Below, one piece after another: positions 4,843-59,740 of a DNA stretch of 64,000 nt. Under the pieces are notes generated by a model. That model saw only the letters and a list, made by a program, of their open reading frames with translations. It was not told the DNA's origin and ran no database searches. Origin of the DNA: Eledone cirrhosa. Its lineage: Eukaryota. Every line of letters starts with the position of its first letter. Positions within the stretch are counted from its first letter, which is position 1. The DNA is taken from the NCBI GenBank assembly GCA_964016885.1, contig OZ024740.1, positions 297,228,001 to 297,292,000 on the forward strand. The letters run 5' to 3'. Position numbers and translations under genes: made by a program.

Positions 4843-5337
4843 ATATATATATATATATATATATATATATATATATATATATATATATATATATATATAT
4901 ATATATATATATATATATATATATATATATATATATATATATATGTATGTATATATATATATGTATGTATATATATATATGTATGTATATATATATGTAT
5001 GTATATATGTATATATGTATATATATATATATATATATGTATGTATATATGTATATATGTATATATATATATATATATATATATGTATATATATATGTAT
5101 ATATATATATATATATATATATATATATATATATATATATATATATATATATATATATATATATATATATATATATATATATGTGTATATATGTATGTAT
5201 ATATATATGTATATATATATATATATATATATATATATATTTATATATATATATATATATATATATATATATATATATATATATATATATGTATATATGT
5301 ATGTATATATATATGTATATATATATATATATATATA
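4843..5337. repeat. Long (TA)n / TATG microsatellite
   Basis: Direct sequence; source of the YI-repeat pseudo-ORFs. Confidence 0.98.
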
Positions 5338-5640
5338 CAAGTTAATATAAATTAATATATGATAAACACGTAAGTGTTTGCATTGCAAAAGACGAAGTTA
5401 GCTAGAATGAAATAAACTAATTAAAATAAATATAGTTTGTCCGTCTCGATATAAATCGATAAAAACAAGCTCATATTGGCAAAAGCCGTGATTCCTGGAC
5501 AAATTTAAATTTCAAAGTCCAATGCAAACACTTACGTGTTTATCATATATTAATTTATATTAACTTGTATTTCACGGCTCAGAAATGCTTCTTTCTTTGA
5601 GCTAATTAATTGTAAATGACTGTTTGATTTTAAAACTCTA
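5336..5640. repeat. Inverted repeat (arms 5336-5385 and 5520-5569) with one-sided tail; probable truncated PLE insertion
   Basis: 50-bp perfect inverted arms; (TA)-rich tracts on both sides. Confidence 0.7.
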
Positions 5641-7556
5641 AATATAATATAATATATATATATATATTTATTAAAATAACAGATTAAAGTTTAAGCAAAG
5701 AATCGCTGCTTTCACCCTTAACGGGATCTTCTGAAACTAACAAAGTCAATCTGTAAACGCAGAACTGGATATTTCAAAAAGCGTTGCAACCGGAGGAAGA
5801 CAGGAAGACGATACTTTGGTTCGTGGTAACGTTCGCTGGCAAAGAACGGGAAAAAACGAATAATACGTCATTAATAGGAGCGGTGAAAAACAATTACGCG
5901 CAAAGACAAAACCACGTATATGGTATAAAAGAGGTCGTAGACTAATGTTCTCTTAGGTGGTGCATAGAGACGTTCTCTGGAAATGAACGAAAAAACGAAG
6001 AAAATAAGTCATATGTGGAGCGTGGAGGACAAAAGCACGCAAAGACAAAACCACGTAAATGGTATAGCAGAAGTCGTAGACCTTATCGAGCCCTCTTTGG
6101 ATTTTAGTCTTCAATTTTATTATTATTACTATATATATATATATATATATATATATATATATATAGTATATATAATATATATATATATATATATATATAT
6201 ATATATGTGTGTGTGTGTGTGTATATATATATATATATATATATATAAAATAAAGTTAAACAAAAGTTAAATGATTAAAATTTAGCTTCGTTTATTACTG
6301 CTATATATATTTCAGTGACAGCCATCTTTGGCTGTGACCTCTTCAGGCAGTGTGAATTAGTATGTATAGACAAGTACAGATGTTGTTTAGGTGTATAATA
6401 TTGTCAATACTCTAATATGCCCAGTTCCTTGTTGGGTTGTTAATTCACTGAGGAACTGGAGTCATATGAATTCAAACAAACGAATTTCAGTGTCAAAGGT
6501 CCTCTTCTCCTCTCATTGGTCAGTTATTAGAACATTCCTCATTCTAAGTGTTGTTATTGTTGGAGTAAGCTTAAAAATTGATAAAATGGTAGAAGGGACA
6601 AGGTGTTAAAGGAACAAAATAACAAAAAAAGTGTCAAACTTCCCATTGGTCAGTCCTGAGAGCATTCCTCAGTCAGAAGTCTATAGAATTCTTTCTGGGG
6701 TGAGGCTCCCTGTAGTGTTTTTGCCTGCTATTGTTCAGTACGTTTGACCTCTACCATTATTTGGTAGTGTTGTTGGTGTAGTGGTCAGCTTATATCTCGC
6801 TGCTGCTAACAATTTAGAAGTATCCAGTTTGTGTTTTTTCTTCATCCTCCTGCCACCCTCGTAGTGGTGGTGGTGGTGGTGGGGTGTTCTTCCATGTATA
6901 TGAAGAAATATAAGGCAATAAATGAAGAAAACAGAAAATAAATAAATAATATAATAAAATAATTAATATAATTTGTATAATTTGAAAATAAATAAATAAA
7001 TAGAGAATAAAGAATAAAGAATAAAGAATAAATGAAAAATTGGTGAAAATGTAATGAAAATGAATATGGAGAAGTGAGAAATAATGTAGGATAAAGTGTG
7101 TGTGTGTGCTATAACCAATCTCAAGGTCAGAATATGTTGGATATATTGGTATGAGACAAGATGTTAAGATGAGATATTCAAACTAAATGTGTTTGTGTTA
7201 TAATCAATCTCAACTTAAAAATAAATATAAGGTGATACAGTGAAGAGGGCAGAAATCAAATAACAAATTAATAAAGAGAAATCAGGATTTAAGATTGGAA
7301 CTTGAAAATCAGAAATCTAGTAAATTAAAAGTGTTTGTGTTATAGATGTTGGCCAAATTATTATGGCTGTGTCCGATTCTGTCTCTAGGCTATCATGGTG
7401 TCTGCTCCGCCTGGGTTGTTCCTATGGCTTGAGGGGAGTTCACAACCTAGGGTGTTGTTATTGCCCATATAGCTTGAGGGAGGTCTGGCCGAGTGGTGTT
7501 TTCATGTTCTGTAGCAGTCCCTATAGCTTGATGGGAGTTCACATCTTCTTGTGTTG

Positions 7557-8460
7557 CTACTGTCCATATATCTTGAGAAAGGTCCCGGCTCTAAGGTGTC
7601 TGCATGTCCCGAAGAAGTCGGTTCTGAGGTTTATCAGGCCGCTTCCACCTCTTAGTATCTCGAGGGTCTCGTTCAGGCATAGTTTGCATATGCAAGATCC
7701 CCCTTTATCGGGTGGTACTTTCCTGATTATGTACCAGGCCAGAGAGTATGGGGTCCTGTCCAGCTTAAGCTTCCAGATCAGGTCGGAGAGAGCTGTGCTT
7801 TTCCTTTTGGCCTCCTTCTTGAATGAATGGCGATGGTTGTACCAGCGGTCCTTAAAGCTCGTTGATATGGCTCCTATGTAGAGGTGTTCGGAGTTGGGGG
7901 TTTTAACCCTACAACCGTACACTAGGTTCTTCTTGAGGCATTCATTACCAAGGGGGCATGATTCGGGGTTTCTGCAGTTGCAGAGGGTGGTCGGCCTCTG
8001 CGTGCCTAGATTAGGGTTCCCGTTATGTGTTACAAGTTGGTCTTCCCCAGGCTCGGTGGGGGGTCCTCGGGTCTGTTTGGGTTTCTTGGGTGGGCTCTGG
8101 GTCCCCCCTTCCCTCCTTTCACATGGTTCTGCTGAGTGTTTGTATTGCCATCTTCTGGTTGTGTGTGGTTTTTAAGCCTACTTCTGTTGATGCTAGCTAT
8201 GTGTTGGGCCAAATTTCTCGTGGTGGAATACGAAAGCTTCACAGTGTGTCTGTTGAAGATCCTGTGGTATCTGTGGTCCCTCGGGAAGCATTTGTCAAGT
8301 GCGCCAAAGAATAATCGGGCCAAGCTTTTCTTTAGGGCCGTTGAGTAGGGTGGGTTGTACCACGTGATTTGTCGGTGTCTCCTCCTATATGTGTGGGTCG
8401 GGGGCTTCGTTATTTGTTGGAGATTTGTTGGGTTGCTGGTGGTTTCCGCACTGTTGCTTC
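7557..8460 (-). pseudogene. PLE C-terminal linker plus GIY-YIG endonuclease (frameshifted)
   Basis: ORFs 8030-8323 and 7557-7922 (VYGC..LYIGAISTSFKDRWYNHRHSF) are homologous to 13120-13515. Confidence 0.85.
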
Positions 8461-9123
8461 CCCTTTGGGCTCTATGCTTTTTGTTATCTTATTTATTTTG
8501 TTATATTATTTATTTGTTATATTATTTATTTATTTTCTGTTTTCTTCATTTATTGCCTTATATTTCTTCATATACATGGAAGAACCCCGCCCTCCCCCCA
8601 CCACCACCAGCACTACGAAGGTGGCAGGAGGGATGACGAAAAAACACAAACTGGATACTTCTAAATTGTTAGCAGCAGCGAGATATAAGCTGACCACTAC
8701 ACCAACAACACTACCAAATAATGGTAGAGGTCAAACGTACTGAACAATAGCAGGCAAAAACACTACAGGGAGCCTCACCCAGAAAGAATTCTATATTCTG
8801 ACTGAGGAATGCTCTCAGGACTGACCAATGGGAAGTTTGACACTTTTTTTGTTATTTTGTTCCTTTAACACCTTGTCCCTTCTACCATTTTATCAATGTT
8901 TAAGCTAACTCCAACAATAACAACACTTAGAATGAGGAATGTTCTAATAACTGACCAATGAGAGGAGAAGAGGACATTTGACACTGAAATTCGTTTGTTT
9001 GAATTCATATGACTCCAGTTCCTCAGTGAATTAACAACCCAACAAGGAACTGGGCATAGCAGAGTATTGACAATATTATACACCTAAACAACATATGTAC
9101 TTGTCTATACCATACTAATTCAC

Positions 9124-58679: not shown

Positions 58680-58874
58680 GGACAAAATGAAAACACACAC
58701 ACACATAGAACAAACAACCAACCAGTAACATGTAAATAAACAAATAGATAAATGAACATAAACACACACAGACACCCGGATGTGGCGCTGCGCAGACTGA
58801 GCACGCAACACACAGAAACAAAATGGCGTAGGACAGAACAAAGGAGAGGCACAGAAACAAAGAAAGGAATCCCC

Positions 58875-58919
58875 AGTCACTGAAGAGGTCACAGAGTGTG
58901 TGACGAAAGAACTATGACT
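58875..58919 (+). ncRNA. Minimal hammerhead ribozyme (mirror 57294-57338, minus strand)
   Basis: AGTCA-CTGAAGA-G-GTCACA/TGTGAC-GAAA-GAAC-TA-TGACT. Confidence 0.8.
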
Positions 58920-59081
58920 ATATATAAACAACTATCTGGTTGTGGAACCAACCAACCAACCAGAAATTTATAAATTTGTAAATTTATAAATATATAATAA
59001 ATTGAAGTGAAAGCAACTGGTGCGTGTGTTTCTTATTGGCAACATGACCCTCCCAAAGTATAACAATATATATATATATAT

Positions 59082-59740
59082 ATAAACATAAGTATGTATA
59101 CGTACATACATATATGTATACAGACGTACAGTAGTATGTATATATATATACATACATGCACACATATATATATGTACGTATGGATTCACCAAACATTTAT
59201 TATAATGCTCGGTGTGTTTGTAAACAAACATCCCGTATAAAGTCGCAGTGTCTAGCAACCACCGTTGCTCGTTTGTTCAACACTGACAAAGGAACGCTGA
59301 CTAGTTTCAAGCTTGTTAGCTATCGTCAGCAACGTATACGTTCCTGCCAGATTGTTGAACGTCCGAAAGTATATACTTTCCTTATGCATTTTAACTTGCT
59401 GAGTAGCCCAATTTGCATATCGAGTGGGTTAATCGGCCGGGTGCACCGGTACAGCTTGAAACTAGTACAGCGTTCCTTTGTCAGTGTTGAACAAACGAGC
59501 AACGGTGGTTGCTAGACACTGCGGCTTTATACGGGATGTTTGTTTATAAACACACCGAGTATTATAATAAATGTTTGGTGAATCCATACGTACATATATA
59601 TATATATGTGTGCATGTATGTATATAGATACATACTACTGTACGTCTGTATACATATATGTATGTACGTATACATACTTATATTTAAGTAACAGCCGTAC
59701 TAAGAGTGGGAAATGAAATTTCGTTTCATTTTTTTCGTTT
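59082..59740. mobile_element. Head-to-head PLE pseudo-LTR hairpin (arms 59082-59313 and 59453-59686) with tail
   Basis: ~230-bp inverted arms in (TA)n; hammerhead at 59295-59334 (minus strand) CGTTG-CTGACGA-TAGCT/AGCTT-GAAA-CTAG-T(A)-CAGCG. Confidence 0.85.

Follow-up and report, generated by a model that had tools for sequence, protein, structure and literature searches.

In twin priming by L1, a single RNA is primed from both target ends, and the outcome is an inversion with a microhomology join; one start lies at the poly(A) end and the other at a variable internal site, and sequence is not duplicated. Canonical Penelope-like elements (PLEs), namely Penelope of Drosophila virilis and Pen2a_Av of Adineta vaga, are described in the portions of PMC3846280 and PMC8557442 (Fig. 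2) drawn on here as partial tandems with an inverted 5'-truncated copy at the 5' end, with a tail confined to one end and made up of the first part of the following unit's reading frame, and with pseudo-LTR hammerheads and target duplications near 10 bp, all of which recur below. The same portions propose antisense self-priming or leave the origin of the structure open (PMC3846280, PMC8557442), that of inverted, one-tailed insertions being called undefined in the part of PMC8557442 concerned; it is likewise left open in PMC11167929, the main text of which does not account for inverted pairs. In that in vitro study, PAc (a Poseidon element of Anolis carolinensis) cut and extended both target strands at AT-rich targets, with two internal start sites delimiting the tail and a predicted dimer, features that the insertions considered here would share (PMC11167929).

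The DNA analysed, hereafter the window, is a 64,000-nt stretch of Eledone cirrhosa (GCA_964016885.1, contig OZ024740.1, 297,228,001-297,292,000, forward strand), in which inverted arms were detected after masking simple repeats. Its architecture is the known insertion form of endonuclease-bearing PLEs, and its inserts are head-to-head pairs of truncated PLE copies in TA repeats. A preliminary description had noted a hairpin architecture recurring about ten times from unrelated families; seven of nine examples are indeed hairpins with a one-sided tail, the one at 10200-10265 is not a hairpin, and the nine represent seven families, those at 10200, 25447 and 57084 all belonging to family A. In window positions they are:

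5337-5642: family B insertion; tailless arm 5337-5522 (minus), tailed arm 5520-5642 (plus), tail 5569-5642; inverted arms 5337-5385/5520-5568 with 0 mismatches in 49 nt.
6246-9324: family G insertion; long tailless arm 6246 to about 8490 (minus), tailed arm 8501-9324 (plus), tail 9230-9324; inverted arms 6246-6971/8501-9229 with 15 mismatches and 6 gaps in 734 columns.
10200-10265: family A mini-insertion, made up of the tail's outer ~38 nt (minus) and the last ~31 nt of the body (plus).
10351-11062: family D insertion; tailed arm 10351-10833 (minus, tail ~110 nt), tailless arm 10834-11062 (plus); inverted arms 10463-10690/10834-11061 with 1 mismatch in 228.
25164-25329: family E insertion, decayed; left-arm remnant 25164-25189, its outer part lost, and tailed right arm to 25329; 53-nt palindrome at 25164-25216 (83%).
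25447-25967: family A insertion; minus-strand tailed arm from 25447 to about 25917, partner arm cut off at 25968; internal inverted pair 25792-25828/25928-25964 of 37 nt.
27028-27221: family F insertion, an ORF-less short hairpin; arms ~58 nt, tail ~76 nt; inverted arms within 27029-27144 with 6 mismatches in 59.
57084-59069: family A insertion; tailed arm 57084-57460 on the minus strand, of which 57084-57143 (60 nt) is tail, and plus-strand tailless arm 57459-59069, the two overlapping by 2 nt at the junction; inverted arms 57144-57460/58758-59069 with 2 mismatches and 2 gaps in 317.
59078-59744: family C insertion; tailless arm (minus), tailed arm (plus), tail ~59686-59744; inverted arms 59082-59313/59452-59684 with 10 mismatches in 236.

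The one-sided tails measure about 57-110 nt. One side is damaged in each of the insertions at 25164 and 25447, and the latter lacks (TA)n on its right because another repeat interrupts the arm at 25968. The segment at 10203-10265, previously taken for a hairpin, is without inverted arms and consists of a family A tail piece fused to a body-end piece, an exact pattern that has 466 relatives in the genome.

The PLE origin suggested earlier for the hairpins is supported, and the coding and hammerhead features of the window are as follows:

57459-58679 (plus): 3' part of the family A reading frame, with the reverse transcriptase end, CX4CxxC linker and GIY-YIG nuclease with CCHH residues.
7557-8488 (minus): 3' portion of the family G frame, split between 8030-8488 and 7557-8171, with CxCX5C linker and GIY-YIG nuclease; motifs as in PMC8557442, section 11.
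9124-9178 (plus): minimal type I hammerhead motif, family G; mirror copy 6297-6351 (minus).
10904-10987 (plus): hammerhead motif, family D; mirror copy 10537-10620 (minus).
25647-25689: hammerhead motif, family A, in the tailed arm of 25447-25967.
58875-58919 (plus): minimal type I hammerhead motif, family A; mirror copy 57294-57338 (minus).

The GIY-YIG sequence said to lie in the larger insertions was recovered by Pfam at 58161-58676 (PF01541, E 8e-5, above cut-off) and weakly at 7560-8000 on the minus strand (E 0.034, below cut-off), where the frame 7560-8171 has 45% identity to a nuclease at 13096; Pfam missed most truncated frames, and NCBIfam returned nothing. As in endonuclease-bearing PLEs, family A has one frame with reverse transcriptase and C-terminal GIY-YIG, its copies containing frameshifts or stops. 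L061 has a 4151-nt unit, a 919-codon frame (RVT_1 E 9e-4, below cut-off) and an ATG 26 nt ahead of the tailless end; in it a partial tandem gives pseudo-LTRs, and the frame begins in the pseudo-LTR and continues through the tail. Compared by translation with the relevant part of PMC8557442, the motifs of family A match those of the Neptune or Nematis clade (CX4CxxC within the linker CX2-5CxxC, and CCHH), and family G matches the Hydra clade in its CxCX5C linker and its CxxC and CxH motifs without CCHH, read from 7557-8171, and in having a hammerhead and a (TA)n target. A protein search gave 20 relatives, and no clade label, since none of them is named. Naiad elements have an N-terminal nuclease and no hammerhead, whereas A and G have C-terminal nucleases and hammerheads; families B, E and F may be Naiad-related.

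Hammerheads, previously ascribed to many arms, are present as an intact minimal motif in 7 of 18 arms and 4 of 9 insertions (two each at 6246, 10351 and 57084, one at 25447), against 0 of 40 shuffled windows, and none is found at 5337, 10200, 25164 or 27028. At 25164 there is a CTGATGA...GAAA core in which stem I is not formed, and the family C hammerhead at 59078 is damaged in the window copy. The motif scan was positive in families A, C, D and G and found none in B, E and F; no hammerhead family came up in the Rfam search, whose sole hits were of simple repeats to microRNA models, and folding z-scores were weak (-1.1 to -2.5), one stretch in the set (L204) not being the motif. Family B is an ORF-less tandem unit of ~510 nt. 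Family C appears retrozyme-like, as it shares with non-LTR retrozymes (PMC7229834; bioRxiv 10.64898/2026.07.22.740005) an ORF-less tandem unit, here of 430 nt with a longest open frame of 71 codons, and one type I hammerhead per unit, scored as intact in 2 of the 3 units of L204. Families B, D, E and F would be tied to PLEs by insertion signature only, except that the inner end of family D (10351-11062) seems to resemble a nuclease C-terminus; no PLE reading frame linked to E or F was seen. The ORF-less hairpins do have the MITE-like look noted before, but some derive from non-autonomous tandem units and not from truncated coding elements.

The pairing of arms follows a near-strict rule. Family A has more than 15,000 genomic copies, and 83 of its 85 resolved pairs join a tailed to a tailless arm, the inverted 5'-truncated copy and one-sided tail of PLEs; its very short inserts, genome-wide, comprise 466 mixed, 3 tailless-tailless and 0 tailed-tailed examples. 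As tail ends (15,612 genome-wide) and tailless ends (13,652) occur in similar numbers, free choice would yield only about half mixed pairs. All 13 pairs resolved among 25 family G loci are mixed, as are 8 pairs of family C, 25 of 29 readable in family F, and 10 in family B beside 2 tailed-tailed. These counts exclude anchors that have one arm only, a broken partner or an interrupting element; for about 29 of 100 tail anchors and 22 of 56 tailless ones no partner could be resolved. The idea of two oppositely primed cDNAs joined head-to-head is supported, in the altered form that the two use different fixed starts, one giving the tailed and the other the tailless arm, as in the 83 of 85 pairs.

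TA targeting and the (TA)n flanks also held up, (TA)4 lying within 12 nt of 58 of 62 family A tail ends, against 2.4% of random positions in the window and 6.2% in the fetched loci. At 11 of 12 end sites at least 3 nt are shared with (TA)n (null 0.20 per site, P 2e-7), the shared length being 3-5 nt. Interrupted TA tracts expose target duplications of 12-14 bp; 7 of 74 were informative, six of them of 12-14 nt (shuffles: mean 1.2, maximum 4). A cruciform is not required, because L091 lies in (TCTA)n and L282 in plain AT-rich DNA.

The present data allow a model, which we hold with moderate confidence on the evidence of sequence, whereby a staggered cut in TA-rich DNA supplies two ends that prime, each at its own fixed site, on one and the same sense RNA, and the cDNAs are then joined. 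The in vitro cutting and extension of both strands by PAc, a related PLE, from two internal start sites speaks for it (PMC11167929). A GIY-YIG nuclease, probably a dimer, would nick both strands about 12 bases apart to leave 3' overhangs; the duplication length is observed, and the nick geometry we infer. The 3' ends, which terminate in TAT or ATAT, may then pair over 3-5 bases with two RNA motifs about 57-110 nt apart, one end to each, the motifs and the one-of-each rule being observed and the pairing presumed. Both primers would be extended, the outer presumably displacing the inner cDNA, and each cDNA could halt early or reach the RNA 5' end, which may produce the family-specific pile-ups seen among arm ends. 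The cDNA ends would finally be sealed, by enzymes we can only presume, through the microhomology, blunt joining or short templated patches seen at junctions, while in a minority a single cDNA would snap back on itself. The ORF-less families would borrow the PLE machinery.

Arm ends do not form the continuous truncation series of the preliminary description, as 24 of 207 in family A fall within one 20-nt bin where 3.1 are expected. The pile-ups are family-specific (A, -261 to -280; G, -210 to -225) and are probably RNA 5' ends, that of family A being accompanied by the following:

58820-58828 (plus): motif that we take to be YY1-like, at the family A arm-end pile-up, in a putative RNA start region.

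Hammerhead cleavage was rejected as the cause in both these families, the cut site lying at about -155 in family A and about -56 in family G. An extra G before some arm starts, considered as cap-templated, is a subfamily variant. At the inner start site, 5 tailed-arm ends lie within 0 to +7, a pile-up that is at most suggestive.

Patterns of A-to-G change offer a record of the template. Among 264 arm alignments ordered by position, every strong cluster is of sense-strand A-to-G type (two elements, 19-28 per 100 columns); T-to-C clusters reach 9 per 100 columns at best. Five elements are informative for editing, of which four have sense-strand A-to-G clusters common to both arms (shared/unshared: L083, 29/3; L061, 34/1; L176/177, 104/0, in arms identical over 1019 nt; L244, 10/6) and one, L030, is discordant, with 17 A-to-G changes confined to the tailless arm and 8 T-to-C changes in one arm; in addition, L268 has a T-to-C cluster in its tailed arm and ends in poly(A). 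Genome-wide pattern searches, which covered A-to-G only, placed the L083 pattern in its own two arms and nowhere else, the tailed arm being the shorter. An arm has the other arm of its own element as nearest neighbour in 15 of 20 cases. It is most likely that the two cDNAs of a pair are copied from the same sense RNA, and the rare arms with shared changes suggest that the two cut ends likely began at two fixed points on one RNA molecule and both copied it. The shared changes could alternatively be due to subsequent conversion between the arms, or to a source copy that has since disappeared, and L061 and L176/177 are equally compatible with fold-back. More tentatively, as plausible though short of probable, we propose that a dimer leaves 12-nt 3' overhangs, each of which pairs telomerase-style with its own TAT/ATAT motif so that a single sense RNA is read twice; that A-to-I editing frozen in the genome records this per molecule and rules out antisense self-priming; and that one route serves retrozymes and SINE-sized parasites as well as the coding elements of two clades.

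A single cDNA begun at the tail site might turn back at its own 3' end and use itself as template, with later asymmetric deletions of the centre shortening either arm. As a general explanation this is unlikely, but it probably accounts for a real minority. The near-symmetric pairs, about one in six (14 of 81, 3.7 expected) and some with snap-back-like centres, look like fold-back, as would the perfect 699-bp arms around a 4-nt loop in L278, the identical arms of L176/177 and small palindromes at junctions such as that of L081. Pairs with a short tailed arm also trend older, as later deletion would predict (median arm divergence 2.45% against 1.29% in others; 4 such pairs among the 16 youngest and 15 among 30 older ones, P 0.13). 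However, the tailed arm is the shorter in 47 of 81 family A pairs, and a second event would be needed for these, including the mismatch-free L043 and L281, and for the 466 tail-plus-end minis; in 10 of 81 the tailed arm is the tail alone, beyond what a single folded-back cDNA could produce. Further, self-copying could not give the one-arm A-to-G changes of L030, and the tailless end would still require a precise second priming at site 0. Somewhat less likely again are two cDNAs from the two cut ends on separate RNAs, an asymmetric protein dimer giving each its start site. Short tailed arms, L030 and the weak correlation of arm lengths within pairs (rho 0.29) would all be accommodated, and pieces of other families in the junctions of L071 and L222 place other RNAs within reach; yet A-to-G patterns are shared in four of five informative elements, one uniquely in the genome, arms are mostly nearest neighbours, and the surplus of equal arm ends would go unexplained.

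Self-priming of an antisense transcript, which would also yield a head-to-head structure (Arkhipova et al. 2013, PMC3846280), is the reading given to junction palindromes in the part of that paper drawn on and could find support in the T-to-C clusters in tailed arms of L030 and L268, but an edited antisense template would give the reverse of the sense A-to-G seen in every strong cluster, and we regard it as improbable. Equally improbable is the transcription and re-copying of whole hairpins, by which many inserts would be second-generation copies of a few. L030, with A-to-G changes in one arm and T-to-C in the other, and L268, with its poly(A) end, fit a read-through transcript, and some mini junctions recur; however, the recurrent ones coincide with microhomologies of 2-4 nt (22 of 24 without insertion), almost every larger pair has a junction of its own, and the formation of the first hairpin would still need explaining. 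That the short hairpins are DNA-transposon MITEs or foldback elements is the least credible reading, and for families A, C and G it is largely refuted. Family F does have many copies with a modal length near 190-200 bp, but the fixed-length TIR units that the preliminary description had set as the case against itself were not found: its members span 102-220 bp with variable centres and a one-sided tail, some not being hairpins, and families A and G are continuous with copies encoding reverse transcriptase and GIY-YIG.

The structure of such insertions is known, and mechanistic evidence of this sort was not found in the literature searched. The genome supplies tens of thousands of PLE insertion events, in which the near-strict one-of-each rule, target-matching start motifs and 12-14-bp duplications hidden in TA can be read, together with RNA-editing marks, from which the template strand and possibly the individual molecule can be identified; sharp predictions follow from these read-outs for the in vitro system already in place. 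Annotation is affected as well, as short members resemble MITEs or satellites. If true, two-ended copying of one RNA would explain a long-unexplained structure. Unlike in L1 twin priming, both sites here are fixed and close, so that the arms overlap and form a hairpin. Canonical PLE tails are given as 30-40 nt in the portions of PMC3846280 and PMC8557442 used, against about 57-110 nt here, where copy number is far higher and the one-of-each rule, arm-length distribution and template strand have been measured. Family A differs from Neptune or Nematis in its N-terminal region rich in asparagine, histidine and threonine and in its 4151-nt unit. The start sites of PAc are reported to be non-homologous to the target and its site choice not to be strand-specific (PMC11167929), two results that speak against our model, whereas here 3-5 nt are common to (TA)n and 11 of 12 end sites, and both ends hardly ever start at one site. 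Family C, in contrast to retrozymes, bears the two-ended, one-tail PLE signature in its inserts, which points to target-primed copying by a PLE protein.

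The nine insertions of the window represent a known insertion form that the preliminary description had partly mis-described. The inverted-arm architecture ascribed to all nine, named here by window start position, holds for eight; the exception, 10200-10265, is a piece of family A tail fused to the family A body end without inverted sequence, and one side is damaged in both 25164 and 25447. Seven families were distinguished in the host genome (G000, 3.0 Gb, the window lying in its contig 1), namely A (10200, 25447, 57084), B (5337), C (59078), D (10351), E (25164), F (27028) and G (6246), with coordinates such as -270 counted from a family's tailless end (site 0) and the family A tail spanning +1 to +60 relative to site 0. 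The enrichment of (TA)n at insertion ends was confirmed, (TA)4 lying within 12 nt of 58 of 62 family A tail ends and of 2.4-6.2% of random positions, as was GIY-YIG sequence in the larger insertions (57084, Pfam E 8e-5; weakly in 6246, E 0.034). The hammerheads claimed for many arms stood in part, as a structure-based scan located eight minimal motifs in the window, seven of them within these insertions, and none in 40 shuffled controls. Locus L061 contains family A as a partial tandem whose unit measures 4151 nt; its reading frame opens 26 nt upstream of site 0, continues through the tail and codes for reverse transcriptase together with a CX4CxxC linker and a GIY-YIG of the CCHH type, so that family A is assigned by motif to the Neptune or Nematis type. 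Family G carries the Hydra diagnostics defined in PMC8557442. Family C, an ORF-less 430-nt tandem unit with a predicted hammerhead, is by definition a putative retrozyme; in family B, whose ~510-nt unit likewise lacks an ORF, the structure-based scan found no hammerhead motif. The search established no coding partner for families D, E or F. The window further holds:

11166-11358, one isolated arm of an A-related family, which bears a tail sequence of its own at other loci
11579-11652, near-perfect (97%) 74-bp palindrome of another repeat
11652-11745, adjoining that palindrome, a further family with head-to-head pairs at loci L057, L080, L108, L111 and L201
12020-13515 and 26471-26918, pieces of another Hydra-type element, whose nuclease shares 45% identity with that of family G, with no inverted partner seen
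24860-25000, SINE-like head of tRNA origin (Rfam tRNA match at 24871-24928)
25968-26480, GC-rich repeat breaking into the family A insertion 25447 and carrying a hammerhead motif of its own (26345-26390)
28555-54160, 25-kb nest of L1/Tx1-like LINE copies in both orientations, with an apurinic endonuclease domain (Pfam E 1.5e-10); the outer two copies have mirror-image 5' ends, one beside (TTA)n at 28459-28553, the other beside (AAT)n near 54160
56322-56570, lone diverged piece of family-A-like reverse transcriptase
1822-2766 and 60801-63153, from translated frames presumably decayed hAT-type transposase pieces, with no match in a Pfam search

Pairs consist predominantly of one tailed and one tailless arm. 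The genome holds 15,612 exact matches to the family A tail and 13,652 to its tailless end continuing into TA; pairs were read at the first 100 tail matches in position order and, for the tailless end, at 56 of the first 100, and comprised 83 distinct mixed elements, two tailed-tailed (L088, L274) and no tailless-tailless, with L268 probably one further mixed element. Two tail matches sat inside tandems, and some 29 tail and 22 tailless anchors (single arms, broken partners, interrupted) were excluded from these counts. Among very short inserts, exact patterns recovered genome-wide 466 mixed (up to 61 bp) and three tailless-tailless loci of at most 92 bp; none was tailed-tailed up to 90 bp. Loci of families B, C, F and G were picked by similarity and are thus less evenly sampled; mixed elements made up 13 of 25 loci in G (none tailed-tailed), 8 of 20 in C, 10 of 20 in B (two tailed-tailed) and 25 of 29 readable rows in F, 6 of 35 rows having been removed as duplicate, unreadable or of another family.

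On balance we favour a route, in its two joined cDNAs that of the preliminary description, by which the two ends of a cut target would prime reverse transcription at two fixed motifs of a single sense RNA, and the cDNAs, halting independently of each other or on reaching the RNA 5' end, would then be joined; a cruciform is not needed for insertion. That the template is sense RNA is suggested by dense sense-strand A-to-G clusters, found in two elements of a position-ordered sample of 264 alignments, which contained no comparable T-to-C cluster, and in a few more elements from pattern searches (12 matches). Family A copies at L175, L174, L176/177, L083 and L061 carry 30-160 such changes, which we take as the signature that double-strand RNA editing would leave, implying germline transcription of hairpin insertions. 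Changes common to both arms, against those not, number 29 and 3 in L083, 34 and 1 in L061, 104 and 0 in L176/177, and 10 and 6 in L244, whose arms are elsewhere ~4% diverged; the L083 pattern occurs genome-wide solely in its own two arms, the tailed being the shorter. Such sharing is consistent with a single edited sense RNA having been copied twice, conversion between arms being an alternative source, and templating by two separate RNAs, which accommodates the editing data less well, is improbable. Antisense self-priming, also a poorer fit to those data, is very improbable indeed. Against the one-RNA reading, the arms of L030 are discordant, and this element may have arisen by re-copying of a whole hairpin; L175 and L178 carry no information on concordance, and the partner arm of L174 is absent within range. 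In 15 of 20 cases the two arms of one element were mutual nearest neighbours, which shows a common source, though not necessarily a common molecule. Fold-back followed by later deletion, weakly favoured by a non-significant age trend, is unlikely as the general route, while near-perfect palindromes, L278 and L176/177 among them, resemble products of snap-back by a single cDNA, which is probably a real minority route.

The repeat shares at least 3 nt (TAT, ATAT, TATAT) with 11 of the 12 end sites having a known internal continuation (null 0.20 per site, P 2e-7). An informative duplication spans 7 of 74 elements (shuffle control: mean 1.2, maximum 4), six being of 12-14 nt and one element, L282, sitting in non-repeat DNA; the target thus pre-exists and is cut with a stagger, which, with both ends as primers, would leave 3' overhangs. 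Of 30 junctions read in the very short inserts, 24 lacked insertion or mismatch, and 22 of these join on 2-4-nt microhomology (null 0.17); in larger pairs the arms overlap, meet bluntly or are bridged by templated patches. At L071, L146, L222 and L241, arms of one family are directly fused to pieces of another, which suggests template jumps between families.

Among 81 simple family A pairs, the tailed arm had the longer reach in 30, the shorter in 47 and an equal one in 4, and was tail-only in 10; median arm lengths were 265 and 262 nt (rho 0.29), with ends no more than 15 nt apart in 14 pairs versus 3.7 in permutations. Arm ends pile up at -280 to -261 in family A (24 of 207; expected 3.1), beside what we take to be a YY1-like motif, at -210 to -225 in G, near the core start in E and near -63 in F, giving MITE-like modal sizes without fixed length. 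Hammerhead cut sites do not coincide with the pile-ups in A or G. The pile-ups are probably RNA 5' ends; PMC2377424 places the Penelope promoter within the element. Long T runs precede family F arms exactly at the 5' stop point at L092, L099 and L191, and may reflect either non-templated nucleotide addition or a switch to the end of a different RNA.

Insertion structure, tail, hammerheads and (TA)n bias are described in the available text of PMC8557442 and likewise of PMC3846280, which proposes antisense self-priming, and retrozymes are treated as PLE derivatives in the accessible parts of bioRxiv 10.64898/2026.07.22.740005 and PMC7229834. Neither a one-RNA, two-primer model for PLEs nor evidence on it from RNA editing was found in the main texts of a largely open-access literature. 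As far as its accessible portion goes, PMC11167929 has both target strands cut and then extended from two start sites, and offers no model for inverted pairs. The insertion form itself is therefore known, and this genome makes the mechanism of PLE insertion testable.
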